The notes beneath the pieces are model-generated. The model made no database searches, was not told the DNA's origin, and saw only the letters and a list, made by a program, of their open reading frames with translations. A stretch of DNA of 64,000 nucleotides, from IMG/VR virus record IMGVR_UViG_3300025316_001100. One strand, given 5' to 3'. Made by a program: the position numbers and the translations under genes. Below are positions 3,095 to 63,786 of this stretch, piece by piece. Every line of letters begins with the position of its first letter. Positions within the stretch are counted from its first letter, which is position 1. Origin of the DNA: a virus. Its lineage: Duplodnaviria; Heunggongvirae; Uroviricota; Caudoviricetes.

Positions 3095-3095
3095 T

Positions 3096-3538: not shown

Positions 3539-3676
3539 ACACGTGGCGTTTTCTCAGCGTTGTGCGACTTCAATTCACGATGCTGGCACTGTTCGGGTTC
3601 ATATCCCCGCTTCTTGTTCCGCTTGTTATTACGGTCCAACGAGGACCGCTTATATTGCTTACCGCTCTTACCCATG

Positions 3677-3704
3677 ATTATACTACCGTTTCTCCTTTTG
3701 TAAA
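3677..3704 (-). promoter_or_regulatory. sigma70-type promoter TTTACA-N16-(GTAG)TATAAT (minus)
   Basis: Reverse complement gives TTTACAaaaggagaaacggtagTATAAT; a leader of about 130 nt precedes the 3538 start. Confidence 0.5.
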
Positions 3705-4198
3705 GCTTTCCTCCATCCAGGCGGATGAGGAGTTATATCCACCCGGTTGAACGCCGGATGATATTTCAATTCATAATCACGTGGGTTTTGTACCCGCATG
3801 ACACTCATAGTGACATATGCAATAAAATGCTTTTTGAACTTTGCCCACGTAACAATCTTGCCACGTTCAAATCGTTGAAATTGAAAGGCTTGTTCTTCGG
3901 GAAAATCTGCACTAAACATTTTATTGCTAAGAATCTTCAATCCCTTGAATGTAATTTCAGCGTCCAATTGAACGAATCCATCGCACATCAATCGAAATCG
4001 TTTCATTTCTTTGGGCGGCGGATCACCCGGCCTGCCGCACATTGGAGCAAAAGTTTCCGGGTTACGCTGGTACGCATCGTGATTGACTACATCACATCTG
4101 ATAATCAACCAGCTTTTAAGACCGATCTTATTCAGATCTTCAATCTTTTGTTCGATGGTCTTCATTTCAACTCTTTCCATAGAAAGCCACAAAGCCAA
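3683..4198 (-). CDS. hypothetical protein (171 aa)
   Basis: ORF; the start may lie at an internal Met because the annotated start overlaps the promoter at 3677-3704. Confidence 0.45.
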   Translation of the reverse strand: MALWLSMERVEMKTIEQKIEDLNKIGLKSWLIIRCDVVNHDAYQRNPETFAPMCGRPGDPPPKEMKRFRLMCDGFVQLDAEITFKGLKILSNKMFSADFPEEQAFQFQRFERGKIVTWAKFKKHFIAYVTMSVMRVQNPRDYELKYHPAFNRVDITPHPPGWRKALQKEKR

Positions 4199-4385
4199 GA
4201 ACTATTTTTTCCAGAGCCAAGAGCTTCAAATCGTCTGTATTTGCTGGACACGAAAACTCCCAGGCTCCATCGACCCAAGTCATTGTCACTGGCAATTTAG
4301 TTCTACGCAAAGCACTTTGCACCTTAGTCATTGGCCCAGTGCTATGGTATCGTAAAATCAATTGTCTTACTGATTGACTCATTAC
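4167..4385 (-). CDS. hypothetical protein (about 72 aa, start at the internal Met MSQSV)
   Basis: Track ORF 4167..4424 is trimmed so the overlap with the upstream gene becomes an ATGA junction. Confidence 0.35.
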   Translation of the reverse strand, partial: VMSQSVRQLILRYHSTGPMTKVQSALRRTKLPVTMTWVDGAWEFSCPANTDDLKLLALEKIVLGFVAFYGKS

Positions 4386-4579
4386 AAAATCTCGACTTCG
4401 ACGCTCGGCTTGATATAAGCCCATTTGGTAAGACCGCCATCATTACGAGCGATCCTAATTCGCTTACGGTCACCGTCAACATGGACATCACTCCAAGTGA
4501 CACGGCCTTTCAGCAAACGAAAACCCTTGCGATATTGCAGCTTGGGCAAATCCAAAAGCTGATGAACTCTAACTCTCAT
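4382..4579 (-). CDS. hypothetical basic protein (66 aa, MRVRVHQLLDLPKLQYRKGF...)
   Basis: C-terminal part of track ORF 4382..4696; RBS GAAGGAG directly upstream of ATGAGAGTT. Confidence 0.4.
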   Translation of the reverse strand: MRVRVHQLLDLPKLQYRKGFRLLKGRVTWSDVHVDGDRKRIRIARNDGGLTKWAYIKPSVEVEIL

Positions 4580-4580
4580 T

Positions 4581-4748
4581 TCATGCTCCTTCTTCACTAA
4601 AGATAATGATTTTGTTTTCACTGACTTCGATCTCACTGACGGTCGAACCACCAGCCGTTCCCACACTGGAAGCGTCAGTATAGACAACGATCTCAACTTC
4701 CAGTTCTGGATGTTTCAATAGTTCGGCAGCCAAGTCTTTGGCTTTCAT
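4581..4748 (-). CDS. small acidic protein (55 aa, MKAKDLAAELLKHPELEVEIVVYTD...), not in the ORF track
   Basis: Clean ORF in another frame; TAATG overlap with the upstream micro-ORF. Confidence 0.4.
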   Translation of the reverse strand: MKAKDLAAELLKHPELEVEIVVYTDASSVGTAGGSTVSEIEVSENKIIIFSEEGA

Positions 4749-4913
4749 TATTGTTGCTCCGCTGAAATTGAAAACCGGGTTTCTGTTCTGGGGTCAACCA
4801 CACTATCAGGCCCCAATATACGCCAATACTCTATTCGGCCAGTACGGGGATTTATCAAAGAAACCGTTACTTCGGCTTCTTGATTGTGTTCCTGCAATTG
4901 CTCGATCAAACGA
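4749..4913 (-). CDS. small protein (54 aa, MRNDRLIEQLQEHNQEAEV...), not in the ORF track
   Basis: ORF read manually from the minus strand; stop overlaps the next start. Confidence 0.3.
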
Positions 4914-4925
4914 TCATTTCTCATT

Positions 4926-5264
4926 TCAACAGCCCTTCATTTGCACACCAAGTAGATCGGCAAGTTCTTGCTTAAATTCCTTCTTGCCATCGTGCAGACC
5001 ATCGCCATAAGCACAACCGATCATTTCATCAACATGGGTGACAGAATGATTGTGTTGCCAACCATCCGACGTATCGTGGCCACCAAAGTCGTAGGCGGGT
5101 TTGCCATCGGTACACGTGCCAGCTATCTTACGAATGTTGAAGACGTAACCATGTATTCGCATTTCCCATAATTGACCAACAATAATCTCCTGGCAACCAA
5201 AGGCTTTCAAAACCTTGGGAGTGATACGAATACCGGGAATGGAATCATCTGTTCTGGGTTTCAT
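4926..5264 (-). CDS. hypothetical protein (112 aa), His/Asp-rich, possible metal-binding hydrolase fold
   Basis: ORF; GGHDTSDGWQHNHSVTHVD segment. Confidence 0.45.
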   Translation of the reverse strand: MKPRTDDSIPGIRITPKVLKAFGCQEIIVGQLWEMRIHGYVFNIRKIAGTCTDGKPAYDFGGHDTSDGWQHNHSVTHVDEMIGCAYGDGLHDGKKEFKQELADLLGVQMKGC

Positions 5265-5562
5265 TTTGTTCTTTCACCAATTGTTCAACAATCTTTTGTG
5301 CTTGCAAGAGCATGTACAAAGCCGGATAGTTCTCATCGCCCGGTTGAGCACTCATAAGGTGTTCACTACGATAGACGGTAATCAATGCCACATCTGGAGC
5401 ATCAGGATGTCGATAATAATACTCCCTGCTGCCACCAAGGGAAATAGACTGTTCTTTATCGTGATTTTCATGAATACCAAATCCCCTCCACGGACCAATT
5501 CGCTCGGGCTTATCCATCGAATTGATGAAGGCACAAGGCACAAATGTTACTTTCTCGTCCAT
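5245..5562 (-). CDS. hypothetical protein (105 aa)
   Basis: ORF. Confidence 0.45.
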   Translation of the reverse strand: MDEKVTFVPCAFINSMDKPERIGPWRGFGIHENHDKEQSISLGGSREYYYRHPDAPDVALITVYRSEHLMSAQPGDENYPALYMLLQAQKIVEQLVKEQNETQNR

Positions 5563-5564
5563 AT

Positions 5565-5816
5565 TTAACCCTTCTTAGTTGCAATGTGTCGCACCATATC
5601 TTCCTTACGGTACGCAGTTTGACCCCAGGCTTGATGGTGAGTATTGGTTTCCCACCCATTTTCATACCGCAACCACCACGTTCCGCCTGAACGGAATAGG
5701 ATAGCCATCATGGGCCGCATCGGCGGCTCCTTGGTATAAAGTTCGTAAAGTCCAACAGGTGTTAATGTTTTCATTGTGTTATCGGTAGTACCGTAAACCA
5801 TCATCTTTGGCAACAA
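5565..5816 (-). CDS. hypothetical protein (83 aa)
   Basis: ORF. Confidence 0.4.
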   Translation of the reverse strand: MLPKMMVYGTTDNTMKTLTPVGLYELYTKEPPMRPMMAILFRSGGTWWLRYENGWETNTHHQAWGQTAYRKEDMVRHIATKKG

Positions 5817-5992
5817 ACCATCTCTTTAGAAAACGAGTGCCCGGTTTACAACACTCCTCAATCGAAAATTCTCGATAATGAATTGCTCCATAACCGAAGT
5901 TGACTTCACTTTGCGTGGGAGGCCGATGGTACGTGACTGTCACCACATCTTCTCTTACTGGTAATGGCATGATTATTGTCCTATCTGATTTC

Positions 5993-6012
5993 TCTTATAC
6001 ACCCGGACTGAG
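5993..6012 (-). promoter_or_regulatory. conserved 20-bp intergenic element, copy 1 (minus: CTCAGTCCGGGTGTATAAGA)
   Basis: Exact family member. Its TAA supplies the stop of upstream ORF 5995..6402 (..SPGV*), and an RBS and start follow downstream. Confidence 0.6.
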
Positions 6013-6402
6013 CTTTTGTGCCGGTCGCTTCTTGGCTTTGCGGTCATTAAGTTCTCGTTGTAACCGGATAACTTCCTTATTCAACTGAATGATTTCATTT
6101 TGTCTTGACGAAAGGCACGCTTGAAAATGATCGCTACTCACATAATCAATGTCATTCCGCACATCACCCAACATCTTGAATTTCTTGATGGTGGCAGGGT
6201 CTCGACCACTCCTTTTCACAGCCTCTCGCAACGTATCTTCACCCATATCTTTGGTAACATAATATTCGACTTTAATCGGTTTCATAAACCGCTTATCGGT
6301 CAAACAACCACCCAAAAGAAACATCATAGGAACCTGATTCCTACGCTTTTTTCTTGCCTTCCACTGTCGGGCTGTAGTGCATCGAACTTTCCAAAGATAC
6401 AT
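5995..6402 (-). CDS. hypothetical protein (135 aa), coiled-coil C-terminus
   Basis: ORF ending inside the 20-bp element. Confidence 0.5.
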   Translation of the reverse strand: MYLWKVRCTTARQWKARKKRRNQVPMMFLLGGCLTDKRFMKPIKVEYYVTKDMGEDTLREAVKRSGRDPATIKKFKMLGDVRNDIDYVSSDHFQACLSSRQNEIIQLNKEVIRLQRELNDRKAKKRPAQKLSPGV

Positions 6403-6838
6403 CGTAATTTCCTTTCGATTAAATAAAAACGGACACTTGGGGGTGGTATTTCATTATTGGCGTCATTTGGTGTTATCCACTAACTACGATGCTTGCAAGT
6501 CGTCGCAGATCATCTATAACCCCATCGGCCTCCCACCTATACTACACGCCAAGGATTTATCACTCATGCGCATGGCGTCCGTCTTGTTTCAAAAAAGTAA
6601 TGGTAGGCGTACAGTTACGTCAAAGGCAGGGGTTAAACTGGCAATTACACCCTATGGGTCTTACCCACTTTGTTCAGTTCCCAATCGTGCTTCTTCGTAT
6701 GTGCCATAGCCGCCAGTGAGGTTTAGGCTTTCCAAAGTTGCTGTGATAGACGGTTCAATACCGTCCTCTTCCATTCTGGGAACGTGGCCACTCATTAAAG
6801 CTGACTTTCTAGGCCCACTACCTACCACTACTTAATTC

Positions 6839-7525
6839 TTAATTTTCACTTACTTCCTTGCCGCCAGTAATTTCATTTACTAGCCGCACACAAGCCAATG
6901 CATGGGCCAAAGTCACACCGCCCGGCAAGATCACGCTGGGCAGATTCTTGTTGGCTTCGGCCTCGGCTTGCTCCAAAAGTTCTACCGCCTGCTTAATCCT
7001 CACCTTACCCGACTTGACCAATGCAGGACTGCCATTCCTAGCACCTTCATCTTCTTGCATGATGCCTTGAATAGTAGCCAAAGCTGCACCAAAACGCACA
7101 ATGTCTGCTGCACGTTCGCTAGGGGTGGTGATTCGCACTTCGCAGTTTTCATCGCACTGCTCAGGCAAAGTAACACGGAAACAAGACTTTCGGGTATCAA
7201 TACCTTGACGCCGGGCACCACACTGGGGGCACGTCTTCACATACTCTTCTTCCTCAACCCACTTACCCTGCTTGCTCCATTCGGCATCAGGATGCTCCCA
7301 ATGTCCTTTCACCCATTTACGACCACATTGGTGACAAGTAGCACGGGGTTTGCCACCCGTAGCTTTCTCGCCCACCACATCGGCAGAAACAGATACCGCA
7401 CAATCGGACTTCGTACCATTGTCGGTATTCACTCGACACCAACCACCATTGGTATTTTGCCGACCGCCGACACTGACTTGACGATTATCGTTACCTGCCG
7501 TAATATAAACATTCATTCGAGCCAT
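6839..7525 (-). CDS. hypothetical protein (228 aa) with CxxC Zn-ribbon motifs
   Basis: ORF; CHQCG...CPQCG pairs. Confidence 0.55.
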   Translation of the reverse strand: MARMNVYITAGNDNRQVSVGGRQNTNGGWCRVNTDNGTKSDCAVSVSADVVGEKATGGKPRATCHQCGRKWVKGHWEHPDAEWSKQGKWVEEEEYVKTCPQCGARRQGIDTRKSCFRVTLPEQCDENCEVRITTPSERAADIVRFGAALATIQGIMQEDEGARNGSPALVKSGKVRIKQAVELLEQAEAEANKNLPSVILPGGVTLAHALACVRLVNEITGGKEVSEN

Positions 7526-20669: not shown

Positions 20670-21893
20670 TTAACTGCTTGTCAATGCGACAAGACTTACA
20701 TTAGAACTCAATTGGCTATCCCCTGCATTCCGCAGGTTCATCATTCTTAAACCTTCGTTTAAGATATTCTTACTCGCATTGTAATCTCTATCGTGAGGCG
20801 TAAAACAATTAAAACAAGTCCAATGGCGTTCTTCCCCTAAATCACGATATCTCCATCCACATTCACTACACAATTGGGAAGATGGAAACCATCGGTCTAT
20901 TTTAATTATTTGTCTTCCATACCACTTTGCTTTATACATCAACTTTTGAACAAATGACGAGAAACAACAATCATTTAATTGGCGATGAAGTAATTTTTCT
21001 CTCCATCGCTTCTCTTTCCTTTTTTCTGGGTCTTTGTTTTTCAGCATTGATTTTACACTTAAATCTTCAATAACTATGACTTGGTTCTCATCAATTATTT
21101 TTTTAGATGTTTTGTGTAAGAAATCTTCACGAACATTACTTTGCTTTACTTTCAACTTATTTAACGCTAATTTACTTTTGTTTCTACGATTGCTTCCTTT
21201 AACTTTTCTGCTAACGGAACGAGCAAGGAAGCGTTCTCTTGACTTATATTTTGTAGTAGCAGGACGAGGATTAGCGAACCTTTCATCCTCACTACTTACA
21301 ATATATTGAACATTAAGGTCTAAACCTACAACTTTAATTACTTTGGGTAATTCTTCTATTTCTTTGACACAAGTAATAGAAACAAAGTATTGATTGGCTT
21401 TGTTTTTGCTAATTGTGGCAAACTCAATTTCACCTTCTAATGGTCGGTGAAGGATGATTGGGATGCCTTCAAGGAACTTCGGTATGACTAATTTATCATC
21501 AATCACTTTAACATTTTGTGGCACACGGAATGACTGCTTGCCGTGTCTTTTCTTAAATCGTGGGAAACCACACTTACCTTTGAATTTGCCTTGTTTCTTT
21601 AACTTACATTTTTCAAAGAAATTATCAAAGCCATTCTGTAATTGGCGTGCTGCGTATTGAAGTGATTGACTACCGACTTCCTTCAACCATTCGTATATTT
21701 GTTTCAATTCAGGAATACTTGTGGCGTTGTCATAATAATTTAATGACTTATGTTCTTCACCTTTATGAGCATCAATGCGAGAACGGAGAAACTGATTATA
21801 CAAAAACCTTACGCAACCAAAGTGTTTGGCTAAAAGTATTTGTTGTTGCTCCGTTGGATACAACCTATATTTATAGGTAAATTGATGCTTCAT
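20670..21893 (-). CDS. tnpB: TnpB/OrfB transposase-associated RNA-guided nuclease family protein (407 aa)
   Basis: N-terminal YKYRLYPTEQQQILLAKHFGCVRFLYNQFL (the OrfB helix-turn-helix signature); C-terminal CSECG...WTCFNCF...DRDYNASKNI (Zn-finger plus the RuvC-III motif). Confidence 0.8.
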   Translation of the reverse strand: MKHQFTYKYRLYPTEQQQILLAKHFGCVRFLYNQFLRSRIDAHKGEEHKSLNYYDNATSIPELKQIYEWLKEVGSQSLQYAARQLQNGFDNFFEKCKLKKQGKFKGKCGFPRFKKRHGKQSFRVPQNVKVIDDKLVIPKFLEGIPIILHRPLEGEIEFATISKNKANQYFVSITCVKEIEELPKVIKVVGLDLNVQYIVSSEDERFANPRPATTKYKSRERFLARSVSRKVKGSNRRNKSKLALNKLKVKQSNVREDFLHKTSKKIIDENQVIVIEDLSVKSMLKNKDPEKRKEKRWREKLLHRQLNDCCFSSFVQKLMYKAKWYGRQIIKIDRWFPSSQLCSECGWRYRDLGEERHWTCFNCFTPHDRDYNASKNILNEGLRMMNLRNAGDSQLSSNVSLVALTSS

Positions 21894-52463: not shown

Positions 52464-54068
52464 TTACTTCCCAGACTGCACATTTATCACAGGGGTAATC
52501 CCCTTGAGATCCGTCCAAAGAGTACCAGGGCCAGAATAAATCATCTTCAAATCAATGTCATCTGGCAATCCTGTAGCAAATTGCCACTGCGTATAAGCCG
52601 ATGGATCACCAAAAGCCTTAACGGCCAATTCAAACAACTGTGCCTTGGCTTCCTGCTGCAACCGTTTGGAAGCGTTCTCGGCCTCACCGATAGCGACCAC
52701 CTTTTGAGCTTCGATATCGGCCACCTTCCTATCAACAGCAGCAATCATCTTCTCCGTTTCAGCGGCCGTAGTATCAGCAGTCTTTTGGCCTTCGGCATTG
52801 ACATTGGCAACCAATTTCTTGGTGCCTTCCGTAATTTTTGCCGCTTCCAATTTAACAGTCTGTTCGGCAGCACGCAACTTCATTTCAGTCTTGGCTGTAG
52901 TCGCTTCCTGGGTACGTGTCAAAGCCAATTCGTCGGCAATGTAGCCCTTTTGAATAGGTTCTCGCACGTCCTTCGGAATGTAAATGTGACGCACTAAACC
53001 GTACAATAAACTAATGTTCTTTTCTTTCAACACTTTATTGAAAGATTTATCAACATCCTCTTGGAATTTTTGTCGGCTATCACCCACAAGCAATTCCACG
53101 GCTCCCAATCTCGATCCATTGTTACGACAAATAGATTCGCATTGAGGAATAATCACTTTGCTTTCCACAGCGGCCAAATTACCAAAACGACTGATAATGT
53201 CTGGGCACTGATCAGGCAGCACTCCCCACACAGCACTGAAGTCCATTTGAATCTTGAATCCATCGCTCGAAGGGAATGTAATGCCTGTATTCACTACTGG
53301 CATACATTCTCCGCTGGCGTCAACTAGAACTTGATTCTGCTGGTTGACTTGCTTCTCGGTCGAAATCTCTTTGGCATTATAACCAATAGAAACAATATCG
53401 ATTTGCATCTCACGGGGATTGATCGGATAAAGGCCAGGAGGCAATGTATCCTTTTGAATTCCCGCTTTACGACCAAGAGCAGTGTTGTCTGTCAAATACG
53501 TGACCACGCCAACATAACCAGGGTTTATATGCACCCAACCAGCGTGCTTCATTTGTGGTATTTGTTGAGAGCCAACATTCGTCTCTTCAGTTCTAACGAC
53601 CTTTACTTCGTAACCATACGGATTGATACGATACCGTCCAGGTCCGAATGTACGTCGCAAAATACCCTTTTGTGTAGTGGCCCCAAGATCACCATCAACC
53701 AAAAATTGACCACTAGGCAAATCGTTGCCCAATTTACTGGTAACAATGGCCAATTCACCGGGCTTCACCACAACGTCGTCAACCACTGTTCGTTCCCACC
53801 AAACGGGACAATAAAAATGACGACCAGGGCCGGGCATGTCACACTTTACACCAATCTCACCCTCTTTGGCAAAATTGCCAGCAGCAGCATACTTGTTGCC
53901 CAACGTAAAAAACAACGGTCCCTTATACCGCAACATAAGACTTTGACCGGGTTCAACGTAAACTCGATTAACAGTCCAGTCGAAGAAAAAGTAAGAGCAG
54001 AACAGGGCAATTACGCCCAGGCCCACACTAGCAAGCAAACAACCCTTGGTTTCATCTCTCAAACTCAT
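52464..54068 (-). CDS. SPFH/band-7 (flotillin/HflKC-like) membrane protein, paralog B (534 aa)
   Basis: N-terminal TM helix; internal PG-YPINP repeats; C-terminal Ala/Glu/Gln-rich coiled-coil (AETEKMIAAVDRKVADIEAQKVVAIGEAENASKRLQQEAKAQ). Paralogous to 54084..55628. Confidence 0.5.
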   Translation of the reverse strand: MSLRDETKGCLLASVGLGVIALFCSYFFFDWTVNRVYVEPGQSLMLRYKGPLFFTLGNKYAAAGNFAKEGEIGVKCDMPGPGRHFYCPVWWERTVVDDVVVKPGELAIVTSKLGNDLPSGQFLVDGDLGATTQKGILRRTFGPGRYRINPYGYEVKVVRTEETNVGSQQIPQMKHAGWVHINPGYVGVVTYLTDNTALGRKAGIQKDTLPPGLYPINPREMQIDIVSIGYNAKEISTEKQVNQQNQVLVDASGECMPVVNTGITFPSSDGFKIQMDFSAVWGVLPDQCPDIISRFGNLAAVESKVIIPQCESICRNNGSRLGAVELLVGDSRQKFQEDVDKSFNKVLKEKNISLLYGLVRHIYIPKDVREPIQKGYIADELALTRTQEATTAKTEMKLRAAEQTVKLEAAKITEGTKKLVANVNAEGQKTADTTAAETEKMIAAVDRKVADIEAQKVVAIGEAENASKRLQQEAKAQLFELAVKAFGDPSAYTQWQFATGLPDDIDLKMIYSGPGTLWTDLKGITPVINVQSGK

Positions 54069-54083
54069 GATTAGGTTCCTTTC

Positions 54084-55628
54084 TTAATTCTTAGAGGGTG
54101 TAATAGGAGTGTTCGCCGCTGGAGTCGTAGTCCATTGACGTTTGGAATCAAACGTCCTGAATACATCCATGAGCGGACTATCCTGTGTATTGACCATCAT
54201 GCCCTTAAAGGCTGGGGCCAACTTCTTGTAAAGCGTCCAACGAGCAAATTCATTACCGTTATTTCCAAACGCCGCAATAGATCGCTTCCAACCAGCAGCC
54301 TCGGCTTCATTAGCAAACATAACAACGTCTGCCTTGGCTTTGCCAGTGGCCATAATGGCTGCCGCTTGATCTTTAGCTGCAAGCAATTGTTGCTCGGCAA
54401 CAGCCAATCGTTTTTGGGCTTCAATTACAGCCACTTCCTGCCGTTGCAAAGCTTGTGTAGTTACAGCAACCACAGCTTGGTCAGCAGCAACTTTAGCTTG
54501 CTTCTGCAACACCGTCGCCTTTTGTACGGCCAAATCCTGCTCCGAAGCTTGCTGCGCAATCTCTTTTGTAAATTGCGATTCTTGCTGTAAAGCGATTTGT
54601 CGTCTACGAACCGGATCAGCAATTTGTTCCGGTGGCCGAATGGTTGTAATCAATGCCTGGATCACTTCGATGCCTTGTGCGCCGCAAGTAACCTTCATTG
54701 CCGTTTGAAAATCTTCTTGGAACGTCACACGGGTATCCCCAGTAATAAATTCTTTACCAGAATGGTTTGATCCCTTGAGACGAGTATAAGCACGTGCATT
54801 GGGTAGAATAACTTTGGCAATTACCTCTTCATCCAATGCCTTACCACTACGCTCTTCATTGAAAAGAATGTAGGTAGTCGGTGCAGTCTCGGGCTTCACC
54901 CTAAATTCAATAATACCCTCAAGACTGACCCAAAAACCATCTCTAGTCGGGAAGCCAATATCTTGCAAATTGTATCGTTGACTTCGACAATCAATCAAAC
55001 GAGTTTCTTGCACATACGGATTCAAATAATATGTGCCCGGCTCCAAACAATCAGCTTGTACTCCACGACAATCCTTGGGCGACAAAATTTGATTGGCTTT
55101 TTCAGGCATCGTTGCGGCCAAATTGGTAAGCAACCCCTTATACCCAGCAGGAATACTTACGGGATCATGCAATTCAATCATTTCTGCATAATCATTTCTG
55201 ACAGGCGTAGTGCCTTGAATAAAACCATTGATTGGATATCGTCCAGGTCGCAATACTTCAGGAACAATACCCTTTTGCGTTTCTTTCCATGCAATCAATT
55301 CACCGGCTGCAAGGTCTTCGCCATAAATACGAATGCGAACACCCAACTTGCCTTCGGGAATTTCAACCTGCGGCACCACTTCAGAATCCCAAACATAAGG
55401 ATTGTAGTAATACCGACCTTCAGTAAGTACATCCTTCTGAACACCCTTATAATCTTGAGTGGGGGCAATAATCATGCCCGGCTCCAGATCATTGCCAGTC
55501 TTTTTCATCAGAATGGCCATGTGCTTGGCAGGCACGTCAATCCGCATCTCGGAATACATCCACCAAGGCGTAATCACAACAAACGCTACAAGAATCGCAA
55601 TCCAAATCCAAATCTTTGAGGAGTCCAT
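54084..55628 (-). CDS. SPFH/band-7 (flotillin/HflKC-like) membrane protein, paralog A (514 aa)
   Basis: N-terminal TM helix; SPFH-like core (FPTRDGFWVSLEGIIEFRV...); flotillin-like AQ/AEA coiled-coil (KQAKVAADQAVVAVTTQALQRQEVAVIEAQKRLAVAEQQLLAAKDQAAAI...ANEAEAAGW). Confidence 0.5.
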   Translation of the reverse strand: MDSSKIWIWIAILVAFVVITPWWMYSEMRIDVPAKHMAILMKKTGNDLEPGMIIAPTQDYKGVQKDVLTEGRYYYNPYVWDSEVVPQVEIPEGKLGVRIRIYGEDLAAGELIAWKETQKGIVPEVLRPGRYPINGFIQGTTPVRNDYAEMIELHDPVSIPAGYKGLLTNLAATMPEKANQILSPKDCRGVQADCLEPGTYYLNPYVQETRLIDCRSQRYNLQDIGFPTRDGFWVSLEGIIEFRVKPETAPTTYILFNEERSGKALDEEVIAKVILPNARAYTRLKGSNHSGKEFITGDTRVTFQEDFQTAMKVTCGAQGIEVIQALITTIRPPEQIADPVRRRQIALQQESQFTKEIAQQASEQDLAVQKATVLQKQAKVAADQAVVAVTTQALQRQEVAVIEAQKRLAVAEQQLLAAKDQAAAIMATGKAKADVVMFANEAEAAGWKRSIAAFGNNGNEFARWTLYKKLAPAFKGMMVNTQDSPLMDVFRTFDSKRQWTTTPAANTPITPSKN

Positions 55629-55988: not shown

Positions 55989-56243
55989 CTAGATTTTTTT
56001 ACGATTTTCAAACTTCTCCAATAGTGCTTGCACACGATCAATAAGAAGATCTGGTGTCCCAAAGTCGGGGTGATGACAAAAATGATTAAGAACGTGATCT
56101 ACGGATAGCAACACTTCCATGACCTCGTTTGCCAATTCACCGTTCACACAAGATTCACCAGTACGCAATAATGCGACTTTCTGATACGGACCTTCCATAA
56201 TACGCTCCTTGGGGTAAGCTAGAGAGCATATCAGGTTTCCCAT
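55989..56243 (-). CDS. hypothetical protein (84 aa)
   Basis: ORF. Confidence 0.45.
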   Translation of the reverse strand: MGNLICSLAYPKERIMEGPYQKVALLRTGESCVNGELANEVMEVLLSVDHVLNHFCHHPDFGTPDLLIDRVQALLEKFENRKKI

Positions 56244-56255
56244 CCCAAGTCAATA

Positions 56256-57200
56256 TCACTTGAAAAACTCGGCCTGATCGACAAACTGCATGCTAGCCCG
56301 GAGTGCGCCCGTCTTGTCTGTCGTGGAATCCCCCACGAAAATGCACTCGCTAGGTTGTAATTTCCAATTCCTGATGTGGTGAATGAAAAGTCCAGACTGC
56401 GGCTTACGACAATAGCAAGTCATTGGTGGAATCCGATGAGGACAAAACAGAGTGTCGATTTCCACGCCCAACAATTTACAAGTATGGGCAAACATCGCTT
56501 CTGCTTCGGCATGGGTAAATTCATTTTTGGCAATAGCCGATTGATTCGACGCACCAAGCAAGTGATAACCTTTCTTCTTCCATGCTTTGAGAACAGCCGT
56601 TCGATTAGGAAGAATTTCAATCTCGTCCTTGGCAACCGGATATACCTTTGCTCCCTTTGATTTACGAAGCGTGTCATCAAAGTCAAGAATAATTGCCTTA
56701 TTGACAAAATCCTTAGGATATGGACGACGCTCGAAATGATGTTTCTCAATTCGTGCGAATCCTTCTGTCGTCGTCGGTTTTTGAAATTCTTTACGATACT
56801 TGAAAAGCACAGCCACAGGAAACATATTGGGATCGTCTTTTACGGCTTTCAAATCATCCTGCGTGAAGAAGATTTCGCCATAACGATCCCACATGCGATT
56901 CAACGCATTGATCTGTGCGTCTTCAATGCTGGTGTCCATTAATTTACAAACAACAACGGCCTTCCTCTTCGTGGCTTGCTCAATAAATGGCTTACGGCTT
57001 TCAACGGTGGGAAATGTATTGTCAAGGACTACATTCTTGCCATCAGATAAAGCAGCCACCATCTGCGGCACAAGATCGATAACCTTACCGCCTGTAATGT
57101 CTCGACTAAGATGTATATGACCTTGTTTCTTGTAATCCTCGGTAACTGTCGATTTGCCAGAGGCCGGGCATCCACAAATAAGAACAACTTCTTGGGTCAT
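56256..57200 (-). CDS. Polynucleotide 5'-kinase / 3'-phosphatase (T4 PseT/Pnkp-like, 314 aa)
   Basis: N-terminal P-loop LICGCPASGKST (kinase); C-terminal HAD phosphatase motifs ILDFDDTL (DxDxT) and FVGDSTTD. Confidence 0.8.
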   Translation of the reverse strand: MTQEVVLICGCPASGKSTVTEDYKKQGHIHLSRDITGGKVIDLVPQMVAALSDGKNVVLDNTFPTVESRKPFIEQATKRKAVVVCKLMDTSIEDAQINALNRMWDRYGEIFFTQDDLKAVKDDPNMFPVAVLFKYRKEFQKPTTTEGFARIEKHHFERRPYPKDFVNKAIILDFDDTLRKSKGAKVYPVAKDEIEILPNRTAVLKAWKKKGYHLLGASNQSAIAKNEFTHAEAEAMFAHTCKLLGVEIDTLFCPHRIPPMTCYCRKPQSGLFIHHIRNWKLQPSECIFVGDSTTDKTGALRASMQFVDQAEFFK

Positions 57201-57213
57201 AATGATCTTTCTT

Positions 57214-58347
57214 TTAACCAGGAATGTAAGCAGTCTGCATGGTCAATATATTGCCAGGACTGTCTTTGGCGTTAAGTAAATAAGACGTAGGATCAAGCAA
57301 ATAATCCCATTTGGGAGCATCTAATTTCCAAGAATGAGAAGCCGATGTTCTTTCCCGTTCGTACAACTCCACATGGAGCATCGCACGGGAATGGCCGGGA
57401 ACGTCGGGACGTTCCCGGCCTTCTTTCACAACTGGTGTTACCGTGCCAATAAAATCACCAGCCCGCACAATATCGCCGGGTTTCCATTTTTCATAAACTT
57501 GGATTTCGCCATAACACACAATTCCACTGGGGCCTTCGACTAAAACGCAATCCGTATCGTTCCACCAAGGCGAATTATCCTGCGGTCCTGTAAACATTTC
57601 CTTGCCAACCACTCGGCCATCTTCCACCGCTTGTACAAAAGTGCCTTGGGCACAATAAAGATCCACACCAGTATGATGGGAGTGTTTACGTGCAAATCCA
57701 AAAGCCCCTGGATGATAACCACAAGGAATGCCTGGGCAGTTGGTCAATGGAAATCTCCATCGCAAACAATCTTTTGTTTGCTGTACGATGTCACTAATGT
57801 TGGCCATCGCACCATTACCTTCATCGTTGCAAGCCAGCATCTTAGTTTGTGGATCGACTCGTTTCCAACCCATGCCAAACAAAGTACGCATATTTTTTTG
57901 CGTAATCTCGTTTTGAAGCATCATGGTATTCATAGCCGGTGCATAAATGATCGGCCGTGTATAATCCCATGCTGCAACCGTGCTAGTTAAAATATTATCC
58001 GCCAATCCATTGGAAACCATACCCAACGTATTGTATGTGATTGGTGCAATGACCAATACCCCTGCCCATTTTCTTAGACCGATGTGAACTACCGGATCAC
58101 CCTTCTTCTGCCAAACCTTCGTGCCATGCGGCGTAGTCCATTCATTAAAATCAGTGAATACTTGAATATCTTTGTGCCCAGCAATATATGCCTGTGCATT
58201 TTCGTCGTGAAAGATGTCATTTTCAAAAAAATAACGACCCTTGTCGGTAGTGACAACTCTTACGTTGCCAAGCTCCCGAAGGGTAACCGCTAATTTTTTA
58301 GTAAGTGTCGCTGCAACACTACCGGTAACACCAAGTAAAATATTCAT
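57214..58347 (-). CDS. HFCD-family flavoprotein (phosphopantothenoylcysteine decarboxylase CoaC-like) fused to a C-terminal degenerate M23/LytM peptidase-like domain (377 aa)
   Basis: N-terminus MNILLGVTGSVAA..., VLVIAPITYNTLGMVSNGLADNILTS..PAMNTMM...ACNDEGNGAM (CoaC/Dfp N-domain pattern). C-terminus HHTGVDLY..GTFVQAVEDGRVV...GDFIG..AMLHVELYE...DPTSYLL (M23 fold, HxH degenerated to MLH). Confidence 0.65.
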   Translation of the reverse strand: MNILLGVTGSVAATLTKKLAVTLRELGNVRVVTTDKGRYFFENDIFHDENAQAYIAGHKDIQVFTDFNEWTTPHGTKVWQKKGDPVVHIGLRKWAGVLVIAPITYNTLGMVSNGLADNILTSTVAAWDYTRPIIYAPAMNTMMLQNEITQKNMRTLFGMGWKRVDPQTKMLACNDEGNGAMANISDIVQQTKDCLRWRFPLTNCPGIPCGYHPGAFGFARKHSHHTGVDLYCAQGTFVQAVEDGRVVGKEMFTGPQDNSPWWNDTDCVLVEGPSGIVCYGEIQVYEKWKPGDIVRAGDFIGTVTPVVKEGRERPDVPGHSRAMLHVELYERERTSASHSWKLDAPKWDYLLDPTSYLLNAKDSPGNILTMQTAYIPG

Positions 58348-58614
58348 GATCTACTCATTCTTTCCCCATGTGCCCACCGAGACATACACTGATTAACTCG
58401 CCAAGCACCACACCACGGTCGATGCCAATGAGATTCACGGGTATTACTAAAACAAATAGTCCACGGGTAAATGACCATCATTTTTTTGTTCTCGTTTCTT
58501 GTTTCCACCTGGACATATAACTGCCAAATCGCCAACAACCGGGCCATCTGCGATGCCAAAAAGCTTCACGTCCATTACAAGCGAATGATAGTGTGACAGG
58601 CCATGCTTTGCGAA

Positions 58615-59400
58615 TCATTTCAAGCTTTCTCGATGTCTTAATCCAGCAGCCGCTCCCGTAACTACCACTTTTGCTAAAAAATTTGGATCACTTATTTGCT
58701 GGTGATAAACTTGTGGCTCATTAGGACATGCGGCACAACCGAATACATCATCTTTCTCATCGGCATACACCAACGTCAAACAATGCGCATTGTTTTTCAT
58801 ATCCCTTAAATCGTTTGCAACAATCATATCGCAATGATTGCTACGAATACTATGTTGAGCCGCTTCAATCAATTGTTCATCTGTAGAGTCCACCAACAGT
58901 TTGAATCCGACCAAATATGTTCGTGGATACCACGATTTAACTTGGCTAATGATCTTAGGCAAAGCTACCAAAGGAATGTTCATTTCAGCTACACTCGACC
59001 GCATCTTGCCCTCTACGATAGCTGCTGCACCATAGTCCGATACAGCCGCCGCAAGAATTACAATATCTGGCCTGCCGCCCATTACTGCTGCCTTTAACTG
59101 TATGTGATAATCATCAAAGGTGCGATATTCAAATTCCCAATAAGACGTGTGATGGGCTGCATACAATTCATAAATTTCACCTGTCCGCTGCATGGCTACT
59201 GCAAGGCTCTCACGATCAAAATTTACCCTAGTAGAAAATGGAGACTTTGAATCTTTGGCCTTTAGAAATGTTACCTTGTGCCCGGCCTTCAATGCTTCGG
59301 TCGCAATCTTAGCACCAAATGTTCCACTGCTCATGTTCGTAATATCACGGACACGATCAATTGAAATTTTTGTCCCACCAGATGTAATTAAAATGTTCAT
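58615..59400 (-). CDS. coaB: Phosphopantothenate-cysteine ligase (CoaB domain, 261 aa)
   Basis: ILITSGGTKISIDRVRDITNMSSGTFGAKIATEALKAGHKVTFL matches the Dfp C-domain motif ([34 protein letters not shown].VTLV). Confidence 0.7.
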   Translation of the reverse strand: MNILITSGGTKISIDRVRDITNMSSGTFGAKIATEALKAGHKVTFLKAKDSKSPFSTRVNFDRESLAVAMQRTGEIYELYAAHHTSYWEFEYRTFDDYHIQLKAAVMGGRPDIVILAAAVSDYGAAAIVEGKMRSSVAEMNIPLVALPKIISQVKSWYPRTYLVGFKLLVDSTDEQLIEAAQHSIRSNHCDMIVANDLRDMKNNAHCLTLVYADEKDDVFGCAACPNEPQVYHQQISDPNFLAKVVVTGAAAGLRHRESLK

Positions 59401-59621
59401 TGTTGGCTCTCCGTTCTACCTCGACCAAAAGCTTGACACATGGGTGATCTTGATGATATAGATCGCCTATGAATTACATCAATTCCAATTACTTTAGAAG
59501 AATAATATGACGCATCTGAACAACCGCCTATAATGATCCATCTTCTATAAGTTTTCATGAAATCATCAGCCCAGCCAAATGAATAACCGGTAATGAATCC
59601 ACGATTTACTGAAAAAATCAC
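59397..59621 (-). CDS. hypothetical protein (74 aa)
   Basis: ORF preceded by a copy of the 37-bp direct repeat. Confidence 0.35.
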   Translation of the reverse strand: MIFSVNRGFITGYSFGWADDFMKTYRRWIIIGGCSDASYYSSKVIGIDVIHRRSISSRSPMCQAFGRGRTESQQ

Positions 59622-59649
59622 GCCACATGACCTCGTTCGTAAAATCTAT
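59613..59649. repeat. 37-bp direct repeat, copy 1 (AAAAATCACGCCACATGACCTCGTTCGTAAAATCTAT)
   Basis: Identical to 59878-59914 except for one base; located at a gene 5' region. Confidence 0.6.
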
Positions 59650-59864
59650 TAATTCAAGTGAACTTCACCACGTCCTTTTGTTTCACAAACCACTTTTGTC
59701 ACTCCGTCAACTTCTGTTTTAACAATCCTTACTGGATTGCTTGGATAGTGTGAATCCATGCAGTCTACATAACCCTGACAATAAATTTTGTTTTTACACT
59801 CCGTAAATGATATTTTTACCCATCCAAGTCCAGGATGATTCATTTCAACATGAAACATAGTCAT
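59649..59864 (-). CDS. hypothetical protein (71 aa)
   Basis: ORF preceded by repeat copy 2. Confidence 0.35.
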   Translation of the reverse strand: MTMFHVEMNHPGLGWVKISFTECKNKIYCQGYVDCMDSHYPSNPVRIVKTEVDGVTKVVCETKGRGEVHLN

Positions 59865-59877
59865 TTAGACCTCTTGC

Positions 59878-59914
59878 TAAAAATCACGCCACACGACCTC
59901 GTTCGTAAAATCTA
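59878..59914. repeat. 37-bp direct repeat, copy 2
   Basis: See copy 1. Confidence 0.6.
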
Positions 59915-60165
59915 TATGATTGCACCACTTGAGTCCATATAGATTGCATCGTCATATCCGACCTTCCAAGATGGAATCCTAATCTCCAACACGAATTAGA
60001 CATTAAATAATGTATAGTCATGTCAGGATTGAATATAATACCTGCTGTAGATGCTCCCTCTCTACGATTCTCTGACCAGCAAGCAGAGTTCGGATACCTA
60101 TTGGATGCCAAAAACATGACTACGGCTCTATAACCATTTGGGTTCCAACGCCACAATGCGGACAC
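59884..60165 (-). CDS. hypothetical protein (93 aa)
   Basis: ORF. Confidence 0.35.
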   Translation of the reverse strand: MSALWRWNPNGYRAVVMFLASNRYPNSACWSENRREGASTAGIIFNPDMTIHYLMSNSCWRLGFHLGRSDMTMQSIWTQVVQSYRFYERGRVA

Positions 60166-60306
60166 GGGCCATGAAACTTCAAAACATCGTAAGCACCACT
60201 AATAGAATCAAAATTGATCCAACCACTTTGCCTATGACAACAAAAATTACATTGCGTTACAAGCTTGCTACATCCAAAAATGTGTCGCATTATCCAGTTA
60301 GTCATT

Positions 60307-61347
60307 TTAGATTCCAAAAACATCGCAAAATTCCTCTGCGATATCTAGGATCTCTTCTTTACGATCCAGACCATCGATCAAATGTTGGGGGAAGATACTC
60401 ATGCCATTTACAGCACCAAGCATCGCACCCACAATTGCTCCATTGGTATCGGCATCGCCACCCACGCTAACTGTATCATACAAAGTCTCAATGCCATGCG
60501 GGTTACGCAAAAACATCATATAGGTCAAAGGCATATTCCAATAGCAGCAAAATCGCTGACCACCTTCGCCCATAAACTCTTCAACGATCCTGGGAATATT
60601 ATACTCTCGATACGCTTCTAGTAAAGCAAATCGCTGAGTAATATCATCAGTTTCGGGATCGGTGTTCAACCGACCTTCGGCACACCATTGCTTACCACGT
60701 AGGCCCGCACGTTTGATGGTAGCAGCAAATGCATCTGAATCAAACGGATCAGCAGCAAGACAATAAAATGCCGCCATAACTTGAGCAAATGCTGAACACA
60801 ATGACATTTCAGTGTAGTGCGTCATGAAATTCAAATTCTTGACAAACTGAAATGCTTCCAGAGCAATCTTGTCACGTTCAACCGGTTCTGGATTGTTGCC
60901 TTTAATCAATTGATAAAGAACAGCCGATACCGGACTAATCTTCATGGGCAAACCATTACCCTTGCCCCGGCCTTCATTCTTCAATCCACTCTTTGACCAA
61001 TGCACGCCATTAGCCAAACTACGGATAGCTTCTCTGGTTGTTCCACCCCAAGCCTTTGAATTTTCTTTGAGAGCTTCGATATGCGTTTCAGCCTGGGCGT
61101 CCATATCAAAGCTTTTGGCTTTAATCAGGCCCTTGGCGACAGCCAATGTCAATTGAGTGTCATCTGATGTACAACCGGCTTTCACGCCATTATGCCACTT
61201 ATGTCCAGTAGGATCTTGATATGTTGTAATGCGACCGTACTTTTCTTTTATTTGATCCGCAGACCAACATTCTACCGGCAATCCAAGACTGTCGCCAACA
61301 GCCGTTCCAATAAAAACAGCTTTTACTCTATCACGCATTGATACCAT
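60307..61347 (-). CDS. ADP-ribosylglycohydrolase family protein (346 aa)
   Basis: N-terminus FIGTAVGDSLGLPVE (G..GDALG.P.E motif); C-terminus VSVGGDADTNGAIVGAMLGAVNG (GGDTDT...G.L.GA motif). Confidence 0.75.
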   Translation of the reverse strand: MVSMRDRVKAVFIGTAVGDSLGLPVECWSADQIKEKYGRITTYQDPTGHKWHNGVKAGCTSDDTQLTLAVAKGLIKAKSFDMDAQAETHIEALKENSKAWGGTTREAIRSLANGVHWSKSGLKNEGRGKGNGLPMKISPVSAVLYQLIKGNNPEPVERDKIALEAFQFVKNLNFMTHYTEMSLCSAFAQVMAAFYCLAADPFDSDAFAATIKRAGLRGKQWCAEGRLNTDPETDDITQRFALLEAYREYNIPRIVEEFMGEGGQRFCCYWNMPLTYMMFLRNPHGIETLYDTVSVGGDADTNGAIVGAMLGAVNGMSIFPQHLIDGLDRKEEILDIAEEFCDVFGI

Positions 61348-62218
61348 GATTTATCTCCAATAACGTTTGATAAGCCTTGAGTTTTCTCGCCAAACAAACA
61401 GTGGCGTTTTTATATAAAAAATTACACACTGTATTGATTTGCCTATTACCATGCACCCTAAGAGTAAAGTTGTTGTTCTTTCTGCGTTTGTGCCGCTTGT
61501 TGATTTCGTAACGCACTCCCAGTGTGTCGAAATGACTTCCTATTGCCAGCAACATTTCCTTGGTGGATACTATAGAAAAACATGCTGCACGACTCTTGCG
61601 TTGTTTACGCTTATAGAATGTTAAAGATCCATCTCCGTCAAAGTACCCACGAATAAAATGATGGTGTAAACACTGCGGTATTTCTGGAAATTTCAAAACA
61701 AACGTCTTGCGTGGCACACACCCCAACTTTTCCAAATCAGCACACAGCTTCTTACTCACCACATAAATTGCCACCCTATTCTGAGTATTTTTCTTCTTGG
61801 ATTTATATTCCTTTACATTCACGTGTCCGCACAACAACCAACCCGATATTATTTCGAGTATATCTCTGTCCTGTTTGGCCAATGAGACTTCCAGCCGTCT
61901 ACCGCTATTACATCCATCGGCAAACAAAAATCCCAAACAATACGCCTTCTCTTCCGAGTCAATTGATTCAAAAAACGTGTCGCATACCGGAAATTTTCTA
62001 CGTGTCACCTCTTGCGGTATCACTTCTAGGCCCAATCGCCTAAATCCATGCCGCAAAGCATAAATAGATACCTTACGTGTTTTAGCAAAACGTGACAATG
62101 GCCACGTTTTCAAACCCATATAATCTTCATAAAGACTATGGATTTTTTCATCTGAGTACATTTTTGCAGTCATGCTATTATATAGTAGCGTGACTGCAAA
62201 AATTATCTGCGTATACAC
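61331..62218 (-). CDS. LAGLIDADG-family homing endonuclease (two-motif, 295 aa)
   Basis: AYCLGFLFADGC (motif 1) and FIRGYFDGDGSL (motif 2); overlaps the ARH gene start by 17 nt. Confidence 0.75.
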   Translation of the reverse strand: MYTQIIFAVTLLYNSMTAKMYSDEKIHSLYEDYMGLKTWPLSRFAKTRKVSIYALRHGFRRLGLEVIPQEVTRRKFPVCDTFFESIDSEEKAYCLGFLFADGCNSGRRLEVSLAKQDRDILEIISGWLLCGHVNVKEYKSKKKNTQNRVAIYVVSKKLCADLEKLGCVPRKTFVLKFPEIPQCLHHHFIRGYFDGDGSLTFYKRKQRKSRAACFSIVSTKEMLLAIGSHFDTLGVRYEINKRHKRRKNNNFTLRVHGNRQINTVCNFLYKNATVCLARKLKAYQTLLEINHGINA

Positions 62219-62555: not shown

Positions 62556-62930
62556 TCACTTCTCCAACTCCTTCGCCAGCTTCAAAATGATTTTACGATC
62601 TTCCTCGGAAAAACGAGAAAGTTGTTTCGCAGCATGTAACAACTCACGGGCATCCTTTCGATCCACAACTTGCTTACGCAATTTAGATGGATCTTTCGGT
62701 CCCTTCCAACGATCCGAAGTAAAATCGTAACACTGTTTACGAACAACTCTTGTTTCTTGAATGGTCACTTGAACGATTCCACACTCAGCTACACAAGGCT
62801 GAAATCTTTCAAGATCTTTCTTAGAAGGATAAACACGTACACCACCACTAGCCGTACCAGTTTCCTCCTCCCAATCAATCAAATCCATGTAACCAGCAAT
62901 GGTCGTATTAGTTTTTTTAGTTTTTGCCAT
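62556..62930 (-). CDS. hypothetical protein (124 aa)
   Basis: ORF. Confidence 0.5.
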   Translation of the reverse strand: MAKTKKTNTTIAGYMDLIDWEEETGTASGGVRVYPSKKDLERFQPCVAECGIVQVTIQETRVVRKQCYDFTSDRWKGPKDPSKLRKQVVDRKDARELLHAAKQLSRFSEEDRKIILKLAKELEK

Positions 62931-63786
62931 GTGCTATATCTTTCTCCGCAAAGACAACAGTGTCGTTAAGATCAACAGGAATGGGATTACCATGCAAACC
63001 AAAATGCACAACATATTTCCCAGGCAACAAACGAGTGGCCAACACACCCGCTTCCTTTTGAACAAAATTACCTTCATCATCTGCTACGTAAATGTCCGTC
63101 ATCATTTCATTAGCAGTTACCACCAACCGATGATACGATTCCTTCTGCTTGAACATAGCCCAACATCGTTCCCACAAGAACAAAATAGGCCATGCCTTTG
63201 CTGAAATGTACGCATCCTTAAATTCACCCTGCCGTCTACTTAAATCACGCACCTGGGCCGGTGAAAGAATCAACGTTTCGATATCTTCATGAGTCTCTTG
63301 ATTGATATCGCTTAAATCGCCAGTTGCTACCGTGAATAAAATCTGTACTGATTCGTCGGACAAACCAGATGAAGAAAAAAGAACTGGACTAATAATTTCA
63401 AAACCATTAGACTTCAAGCCAGTTTCTTCAAACAACTCTCGCTCCGCAGTTTCCTCAACCGTTTCATTCGCATCTACAATGCCTGCGGGAAAAGCGTATT
63501 CATAACCGCCCAGCGGCACTCGCATTTCTTTGAGAACCACCAAATGTATTTCGTCACCCACTGCAATGCCCGGTACGATTATAGCGGCATCCGGCACCAA
63601 ATGTTCCTGTTGCTGTGGACCTCCACCTACCGCTTTAGACAAAAGGGGTCGTGACCTTCTGGAAGCAAAAGTCCACGTCCCCTTTTTACCATTTTGTTCA
63701 AAATTTGCTCGCCACAAATTAAGGAACCGGTCGGGTGGTGTATTCACACAATCGAGGCTTGTAAATTTGACCGTTTTCATCATCAT
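62917..63786 (-). CDS. Nudix hydrolase (ADP-ribose pyrophosphatase-like, 289 aa)
   Basis: The Nudix box GGYEYAFPAGIVDANETVEETAERELFEETGL matches Gx5Ex7REUxEExGU. Confidence 0.7.
   Translation of the reverse strand: MMMKTVKFTSLDCVNTPPDRFLNLWRANFEQNGKKGTWTFASRRSRPLLSKAVGGGPQQQEHLVPDAAIIVPGIAVGDEIHLVVLKEMRVPLGGYEYAFPAGIVDANETVEETAERELFEETGLKSNGFEIISPVLFSSSGLSDESVQILFTVATGDLSDINQETHEDIETLILSPAQVRDLSRRQGEFKDAYISAKAWPILFLWERCWAMFKQKESYHRLVVTANEMMTDIYVADDEGNFVQKEAGVLATRLLPGKYVVHFGLHGNPIPVDLNDTVVFAEKDIAHGKN

Follow-up and report, generated by a model that had tools for sequence, protein, structure and literature searches.

The subject of this work is a pair of coenzyme A (CoA) genes, with the spacer between them, in IMG/VR virus record IMGVR_UViG_3300025316_001100 (Caudoviricetes). 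One strand of 64,000 nucleotides (nt), hereafter the window, was analysed, and all coordinates are window positions. The locus lies on the minus strand and encodes CoaB and, within a 377-amino-acid (aa) protein (57214-58347), a CoaC that is joined to a domain resembling the M23 peptidases. Both genes belong to a run of minus-strand genes, and CoaB precedes CoaC, opposite to the order in dfp. A sequence-only reading of the window had proposed two separate genes in reversed order, and the Pfam DFP and Flavoprotein matches, together with the gene order, bear this out. We consider it probable, with some reserve, that the locus is a two-enzyme CoA module of a large phage in which CoaC carries an added M23-fold domain. 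The features on which this proposal rests are:

58615-59400, minus strand: CoaB, predicted monofunctional phosphopantothenate-cysteine ligase (PPCS), 261 aa (Pfam DFP and motifs)
57763-58347, minus strand: fusion residues 1-195, CoaC, predicted phosphopantothenoylcysteine (PPC) decarboxylase, an FMN flavoprotein (homology)
57214-57762, minus strand: fusion residues 196-377, predicted phage-type M23-fold zinc domain (M23 match and ligand residues)

CoaB carries the Pfam DFP domain (8.5e-34), and its best NCBIfam models are both for monofunctional PPCS, PRK06732 (3.3e-41) and coaB_strep (2.4e-37), although it does not reach their equivalog cutoffs (141.6 of 265 bits and 128.9 of 217.2 bits, respectively) and is a divergent member. 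Its best matches in the PDB are Streptococcus pneumoniae CoaB (2gk4, 1.5e-23) and human PPCS (5e-15), and it is closer to these monofunctional proteins than to CoaBC. Alignment with both places the nucleotide-binding and catalytic motifs TSGGT..ID.VRDITNMSSG (TSGGT..IDRVRDITNMSSG), AAAVSDY, GKMRSS, GFKL and VAND. The DFP domain, the GGT..ID.VR.I.N.SSG and AAVSD(Y/F) signatures and the catalytic lysine motif of a PPCS are thus all present; among the motif residues are what we take to be the counterparts of Asn210 and the catalytic Lys289 in E. coli CoaB numbering.

The N-terminal half of the fusion protein is a Pfam Flavoprotein domain (residues 1-193, 1.3e-24), and the eukaryote-type monofunctional PPC decarboxylases (PPCDCs) are closest to it, with Arabidopsis AtHAL3a (PDB 1e20/1mvl) matching at 1.3e-37 and the human enzyme (1qzu) at 3.3e-35. 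The sequence-only reading had set EpiD and MrsD beside CoaC as possible models for this half; against the AtHAL3a value, MrsD reaches about 1e-7 and EpiD about 1e-6, and the range over EpiD, MrsD, TvaF and CypD is 1e-5 to 1e-11. LanD enzymes, to which EpiD belongs, act on peptides ending in Cys and lack the clamp cysteine that carries out the final reduction in AtHAL3a and Dfp. In the phage protein, His88 (codon 58084-58086; PVVHIGLR against PVLHIELR) and Asn140 (in PAMN, of PAMNT) align with AtHAL3a, and the clamp Cys173 (codon 57829-57831) lies in LACNDEGNGAMA, aligned to LACGDYGNGAMA. The AtHAL3a counterparts are the catalytic His90, the Asn of PXMNXXMW and the reducing clamp Cys175. These three residues are invariant in 65 of 65 relatives in our family alignment, which comprises proteins that are 46-81% identical. 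Because of the far better PPCDC matches and these invariant residues, the flavoprotein half is, by every sequence criterion that we applied, a predicted PPC decarboxylase and not an enzyme of the EpiD/LanD type.

One position near these residues has changed. Residue 144 is Leu in the window and Ile in L002, the closest relative locus (its fusion protein, CoaB and Pnk-like protein are 81%, 62% and 84% identical to those of the window), whereas at least 90% of the family, as well as AtHAL3a, have the Trp of PAMNxxMW; the substitution is lineage-specific and predicted to lie beside the active site. Apart from this Leu, the phage protein differs from AtHAL3a and human PPCDC in its extra C-terminal M23-fold domain of 180 residues and in two short insertions in the N-terminal half. 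Compared with the bacterial bifunctional CoaBC (Dfp), the phage has the two activities on separate proteins, CoaB then CoaC, and the M23-like domain is an addition.

The C-terminal half matches Peptidase_M23 over residues 224-331, weakly but above threshold (2.8e-07, 31.1 bits against a cutoff of 28.7). Structural matches support the M23/LytM fold, with LECT2 (human, PDB 5b0h) as the second-best M23-fold structure; LECT2 is an extracellular animal signalling protein and, the fold aside, bears only a faint resemblance to the phage domain (E 0.003 across about 40 residues). An AlphaFold model of the fusion, built with the family alignment as input, is confident across both domains (pLDDT 94, pTM 0.91). 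The predicted zinc-ligand positions, His225, Asp229 and His325 (codon 57373-57375), are invariant in 65 of 65 relatives. Both catalytic histidines of the M23 peptidases are replaced, likewise in 65 of 65: Met323 (codon 57379-57381) stands for the first His of HxH, giving 'MLH' (codons 57373-57381), and Glu281 stands for the other, with 'YGE' aligned on 'YAH' in a profile alignment to zoocin A. Further polar residues are fixed or nearly so, namely His212, Arg220, Glu242, Tyr279 and Glu327, and His319 in 62 of 65. The strict conservation of the ligands, Glu281 and Met323 indicates that the predicted zinc site has been remodelled under strong constraint and is not decaying. The fusion of CoaC to an M23-like domain, with 'MLH' in place of HxH, had been recognised from the sequence, and the Peptidase_M23 match and the codons confirm it; the word 'degenerate' used for this domain is inexact for a site whose ligand triad, Glu281 and Met323 never vary. 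In comparison with the M23 peptidases LytM, lysostaphin, zoocin A and Csd3, the phage domain keeps the fold and the ligand positions, has Glu in 'YGE' and Met in 'MLH', and is fused to a cytoplasmic cofactor enzyme. As judged by reading, the fusion protein has neither an export signal nor a transmembrane segment, and its N-terminus is an FMN-binding strand (MNILLGVTGSVAA).

The fusion family is large, almost purely viral and nearly absent from cellular genomes. A search with the full-length protein yields 1177 homologues at E <= 1e-3, of which the best 120 are all full-length fusions (313-443 aa), some of them on contigs of 200 kb and up to 622 kb. The 735-kb uncultured phage LR756501 also encodes it, in the order fusion then CoaB and with an ATGA overlap. 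GTDB, with one genome per species, holds 591 relatives, and 79 of the best 80 cover only the PPCDC half; BFVD has no full-length match to the fusion. The lone full-length fusion among those best 80 lies with CoaB on a Methylococcaceae metagenome-assembled contig (CAIMDR010000213.1; positions 2997-7125 of locus L114), directly after kinase-like and nucleotidyltransferase-like ORFs that look bacterial and, by eye, AmgK/MurU-like; it could represent the edge of a prophage, a phage contig placed in the wrong bin, or a genuine acquisition by a bacterium. CoaB adjoins the fusion in every locus that we read, LR756501 included, so that the CoaB-HFCD-M23 synteny (HFCD being the CoaC-like flavoprotein) described for the window recurs elsewhere.

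A profile of the M23-like domain alone retrieves 1985 cluster representatives, 451 of them at E <= 1e-30. The best 150 representatives divide into 56 with the CoaC-M23 layout, 55 stand-alone proteins (about 155-230 aa), 24 in which 45-159 aa precede the domain as an N-terminal extension, and 15 that begin with the domain and continue beyond it in a C-terminal extension of at least 100 aa. The reverse layout, M23-CoaC, occurs in P0160 with a CoaC of the window's type, and P0257, on a phage-like contig, is a triple fusion, M23-CoaC-CoaB, in which the M23-like domain stands in front of a CoaC of the bacterial CoaBC type. Three layouts built with two CoaC lineages are hard to obtain by chance adjacency, which argues for a functional link between the domain and CoaC. 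The stand-alone homologues begin directly with the M23-like domain; those of the isolated jumbo phages Pseudomonas PA5oct (gp441), XacN1, Stenotrophomonas RAS14 and CM1 belong to the same subfamily (40-48% identical, about 165 aa, with the shared HxGVD/YGE/MLHxE signature) and differ in residing in genomes with no detected CoaB or CoaC. The murein-hydrolase label of PA5oct gp441 came solely from bioinformatics, and the protein was undetected in virions (PMC7318152). The domain is also joined to MORN-like repeats (P0265), to a Rossmann-like 'GFTGTR...GDCVGAD' domain (P0167) and, in P0190 and P0259, to a common Cys-rich N-terminal domain; none of these partner domains has a Pfam match.

Between CoaB and the fusion gene lies a spacer of 267 bp with the following features, including small open reading frames (ORFs):

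58478-58618, minus strand: small ORF A', 46 aa, MIRKAWPVTLSFACNGREAFWHRRWPGCWRFGSYMSRWKQETRTKK; start codon overlapping the stop of CoaB as ATGA
58344-58481, minus strand: small ORF B', 45 aa, MMVIYPWTICFSNTRESHWHRPWCGAWRVNQCMSRWAHGERMSRS; joined to the A' stop and to the fusion-gene start by ATGA overlaps
58345-58444 and 58476-58575, strandless: diverged tandem duplication, period 131 nt (ungapped identity against shuffles)
58447-58575, minus strand: first Cys/Gly micro-ORF of the sequence-only reading, MDVKLFGIADGPVVGDLAVICPGG...; open in the window, not the conserved frame
58355-58438, minus strand: second Cys/Gly micro-ORF, (V)NLIGIDRGVVLGELISVCLGGHMGKE; GTG start only, overlapping B' in the other frame

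The two copies share 61 of 100 ungapped identities at an offset of 131 nt, where shuffles average 38.5 with a maximum of 49 (0 of 2000 reach 61), and the diverged tandem duplication noticed earlier is therefore real. The Cys/Gly micro-ORFs that had been read in it are indeed open in the window, but in L002, with its longer spacer of 428 nt, this frame meets a stop ahead of the Cys in one copy (...GVVVGDLEQ, then stop) and has no consistent start. The frame that is conserved instead is rich in Trp and Arg and stays open, with ATG starts and ATGA overlaps, in all four copies of the window and L002. Its mean BLOSUM62 score per site over the four copies is 3.63, against 1.85 for the Cys/Gly frame, in an alignment block that was anchored on the Trp-frame motif and is partly biased. 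The orthologue of A' in L002 (4569-4721) is identical at 23 of 46 positions and that of B' (4718-4870) at 21 of 44, and A' and B' are themselves paralogues (19 of 43). Counterparts across genomes (50% identical for A, 48% for B) are thus slightly closer than paralogues (38-44%), so that the duplication predates the split between the window and L002, and both copies were kept. Twelve residues are invariant over the four copies (M, P, T, F, R, W, H, W, W, M, S, W). The peptides are very basic (pI 9.8-12) with 4-5 Trp per 45-50 residues, A' having a pI of 11.3 and 5 Trp. AlphaFold renders A' with B' as a nominal helical hairpin at a pLDDT of 56.

Read directly, the ATGA junctions of the window lie at 58615-58618 (CoaB/A'), 58478-58481 (A'/B') and 58344-58347 (B'/CoaC), and L002 has the overlapping chain CoaB/A'/B'/C'/CoaC with four ATGA junctions. 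C', a third basic ORF in this spacer (L002 4867-5004, 45 aa), is unrelated to the other two and missing from the window. A complete chain of overlapping ORFs arose in 364 of 200000 shuffles of the window spacer and in 3 of 200000 for L002. Other lineages arrange this junction differently. CoaB overlaps the fusion gene directly in L005, L114 and one of two contigs carrying the relative P0004, and is separated from it by 10 nt in L091 and by 56 nt in the other P0004 contig; small ORFs at the junction are absent in L005, L091, L008, L114 and one P0004 contig, and where L004 has two unrelated small genes (79 and 69 aa), L089 has one unrelated 87-aa gene. This variety, from unrelated small genes to none, marks A' and B' as lineage-specific and outside the conserved module. 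The junction of CoaB and CoaC is, on these genomic comparisons, a recurrent landing place for small passenger genes that are putatively translationally coupled, and we infer that A' and B' are coupled in this way and expressed.

Among the readings considered, plain CoA synthesis with an added domain fits best. CoaB would couple cysteine to 4'-phosphopantothenate, and the flavoprotein half would decarboxylate the product to 4'-phosphopantetheine with FMN and His88, the clamp Cys173 serving the final reduction. Given their motifs and invariant catalytic residues, the two probably catalyse these middle CoA steps in the infected cell, which would give the infecting phage its own additional capacity for the two middle steps in making CoA and the acyl-carrier-protein cofactor. 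The M23-like domain may act with CoaC in the cytoplasm, its remodelled zinc site binding or hydrolysing some small molecule connected with the CoaC reaction, and we tentatively see it as such a cooperating site, not as a peptidoglycan hydrolase. A' and B' would be lineage-specific passengers and not peptide substrates. Several observations weigh against this proposal. The motif Trp of PAMNxxMW is Leu in the window's fusion protein, and both CoaB and the CoaC half score under the NCBIfam equivalog cutoffs. The M23-like domain stands alone in PA5oct, XacN1 and other phages with no detectable CoaB or CoaC and is elsewhere joined to unrelated partners, so that its function cannot depend on CoaC. 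None of the roughly 38 window ORFs scanned with Pfam is a further CoA-pathway gene, which leaves the benefit to the phage unexplained. As for the small ORFs, their substitutions have no third-position bias (mismatch 0.42, 0.33 and 0.34 at positions 1, 2 and 3), the source annotation of L002 did not call them as genes, one relative is the sole source of homologues, and a profile search of 5.8 billion proteins retrieved nothing.

Different roles for the M23-like domain can be set against this arrangement. The domain might be an active zinc hydrolase in which Glu281 is the general base, completing a three-step thiol pathway with CoaB and CoaC, in which it might free either cysteamine from 4'-phosphopantetheine, phosphopantothenate then being a recycled carrier for the decarboxylation of cysteine, or cysteine from a peptide such as Cys-Gly. 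The near-invariance of the ligand triad and of many polar residues across proteins 46-81% identical is enzyme-like, the Glu sits exactly at the position of the catalytic His of 'YAH', and the domain has been fused to CoaC or CoaBC in three independent architectures. We nevertheless regard such a pathway as unlikely: an M23 fold acting on these substrates has no known biochemical precedent, stand-alone copies occur in phages in which neither CoaB nor CoaC was detected, and LECT2, the second-best fold match, retains the zinc triad but is not known to be an enzyme. Much the same reserve applies to a non-catalytic module for binding or scaffolding, similar to LECT2 or a LytM factor, that would tether CoaC and other partners to a host protein or structure or aid assembly, and this too we think improbable. 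Such a module would agree with the loss of both catalytic histidines, with the variety of partners (MORN-like repeats and a Rossmann-like domain among them) and with the rigid two-domain model (pTM 0.91), but a simple adaptor would need neither strictly retained ligands nor a new invariant Glu. Degenerate LytM factors of the EnvC type have lost their metal ligands, whereas the phage domain, compared with EnvC/NlpD-type factors, keeps all three positions invariant. That the fusion targets peptidoglycan, the M23 fold binding or cutting the cell wall and the flavoprotein being carried along, had been suggested from the sequence and now appears very unlikely. The fold itself, weak similarity to endolysin families of PHROG (3.6e-06 to 0.045) and the annotation of gp441 as a murein hydrolase speak for it. 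Yet the catalytic His pair is missing and the conserved partner is a cytoplasmic cofactor enzyme. Signs of access to the cell wall were not found, be it an export signal (by reading, with stand-alone homologues starting at the domain itself) or association with virions (gp441 was undetected in those of PA5oct; PMC7318152).

The small ORFs have likewise been open to other interpretations. Their position beside the gene, and the Cys in the micro-ORFs, had raised the idea of a cryptic cassette for ribosomally synthesised and post-translationally modified peptides (RiPPs), in which the flavoprotein would decarboxylate a Cys-containing peptide in the manner of LanD/EpiD. This idea we now hold to be highly improbable. 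PPCDC matches exceed those to EpiD/MrsD by about 30 orders of magnitude, the clamp Cys173, which is specific to PPC decarboxylases, is invariant, and the conserved partner is an adjacent bona fide CoaB. On the peptide side, the Cys/Gly frame is broken in L002, neither frame yields a peptide ending in Cys, the four Trp-frame copies have no cysteine position in common, the junction is free of small ORFs in most of the family, and lanthipeptide enzymes were not seen among the window ORFs scanned. A more serious competitor, though one we still doubt, is that the spacer ORFs are untranslated and the duplication is a non-coding remnant or a regulatory region between coupled genes. The even spread of substitutions over codon positions, the omission of the ORFs by the L002 gene caller, the lack of homologues in 5.8 billion proteins and the low AlphaFold confidence all speak for it. 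Against these stand the ATGA overlap at every step from CoaB to CoaC (three in the window, four in L002), the rarity of a complete ORF chain in shuffles, the signature residues that the A and B types each keep in both genomes, and conserved TGG codons spaced by multiples of three. A regulatory role finds no echo in an RNA-structure or Rfam signal or in an excess of promoters or terminators. An RNA element in the spacer was considered directly and rejected (fold z-score +0.30; nothing in Rfam at gathering or at E <= 1). The Trp-rich peptides were also sought more widely: tblastn against all fetched loci and the window finds them only in the window and L002/L003, and the degenerate DNA pattern for WH..W...W.....MS.W gives a single chance match in IMG/VR and 80 matches in JGI metagenomes, 0 of them beside a CoaB or fusion homologue.

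The surroundings of the module have the look of a large phage genome. The window also encodes an HNH endonuclease, a LAGLIDADG endonuclease and a TnpB gene, most of its ORFs have no Pfam match, there are no tRNA genes, GC skew is uniformly negative, and no DNA-level relatives were found among isolated phages. Downstream of the fusion gene lies one further feature, listed for context only:

56256-57200, minus strand: T4 Pnk-like kinase/HAD phosphatase (Pfam AAA_33, PNK3P, HAD)

This gene is syntenic in L002 and the P0004-carrying contigs but not in L004, L005 or L008. CoaB is the only constant neighbour of the fusion, and Pnk, Band_7 and ADP-ribosylglycohydrolase (ARH) genes are syntenic in close relatives only. 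In L002, a 73-aa gene that the window lacks (6139-6360) sits between the fusion and the Pnk-like gene. Two adjacent paralogues, both longer than 500 aa and both with an SPFH/Band_7 domain (52464-55628, minus strand), are kept downstream of the Pnk-like gene in L002 and the P0004-carrying contigs. Over 56000-60400, a promoter scan gives no excess over shuffles, and there are eight terminator-like matches against 3.7 ± 2.1 expected, with none in the spacer. Within the fusion gene, a 28-nt palindrome (GGCCGGGAACGTCGGGACGTTCCCGGCC; 57393-57420, plus strand) with a 12-bp stem containing nine G-C pairs spans the conserved GRERPDVPGH codons and was flagged as terminator-like on the non-coding strand.

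On the upstream side, the stop of a 74-aa ORF with a GTG start (59397-59621, minus strand) overlaps the start codon of CoaB as ATGA, so the chain of overlapping genes may start upstream of CoaB. Just upstream of CoaB, 60307-61347 (minus strand) encodes a DraG-like ADP-ribosylglycohydrolase (2e-26), and 62917-63786 (minus strand) a NUDIX hydrolase of the NudE/ADP-ribose type, not a CoA pyrophosphatase. The same pair occurs near the module in one P0004-carrying contig and may handle ADP-ribose independently of CoA. A LAGLIDADG homing-endonuclease gene (61331-62218, minus strand) shares 17 nt with the start of the ADP-ribosylglycohydrolase gene; its L002 counterpart (555-1343) and that gene are on opposite strands, and this difference in orientation makes the LAGLIDADG gene appear mobile. 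Farther away, a TnpB/IS605 OrfB-type gene (20670-21893, minus strand; Cas12f1-like TNB, HTH_OrfB_IS605 and OrfB_IS605 domains) occupies the part of the window with the lowest GC content (0.379) and has the appearance of an insertion element within the phage genome.

CoaB and CoaC are textbook enzymes and have been annotated in phages before, for example as coaBC in an Acinetobacter phage record, whereas full-text literature searches returned no description of a CoaC fused to an M23-fold zinc domain. The viral family of CoaC-M23-like fusions, with its rebuilt metal site, is apparently undescribed. The duplicated small genes for Trp-rich proteins matter only locally. It is conceivable, if distinctly speculative, that large phages carry an undescribed three-part unit of thiol metabolism in which a zinc enzyme with a rebuilt M23 fold acts on what CoaC uses or produces. 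If so, phage CoaB and CoaC would have a purpose other than replenishing CoA, and the 'M23 peptidases' that stand alone in jumbo phages, hundreds of them, would not be lysins but enzymes acting on small molecules in the cytoplasm. The fusion family suggests that the label 'M23 peptidase / murein hydrolase' in jumbo phages, as on PA5oct gp441, hides a cytoplasmic role linked to cofactors or thiols, which would have consequences for the annotation of lysins and points to an unexplored part of phage metabolic takeover.

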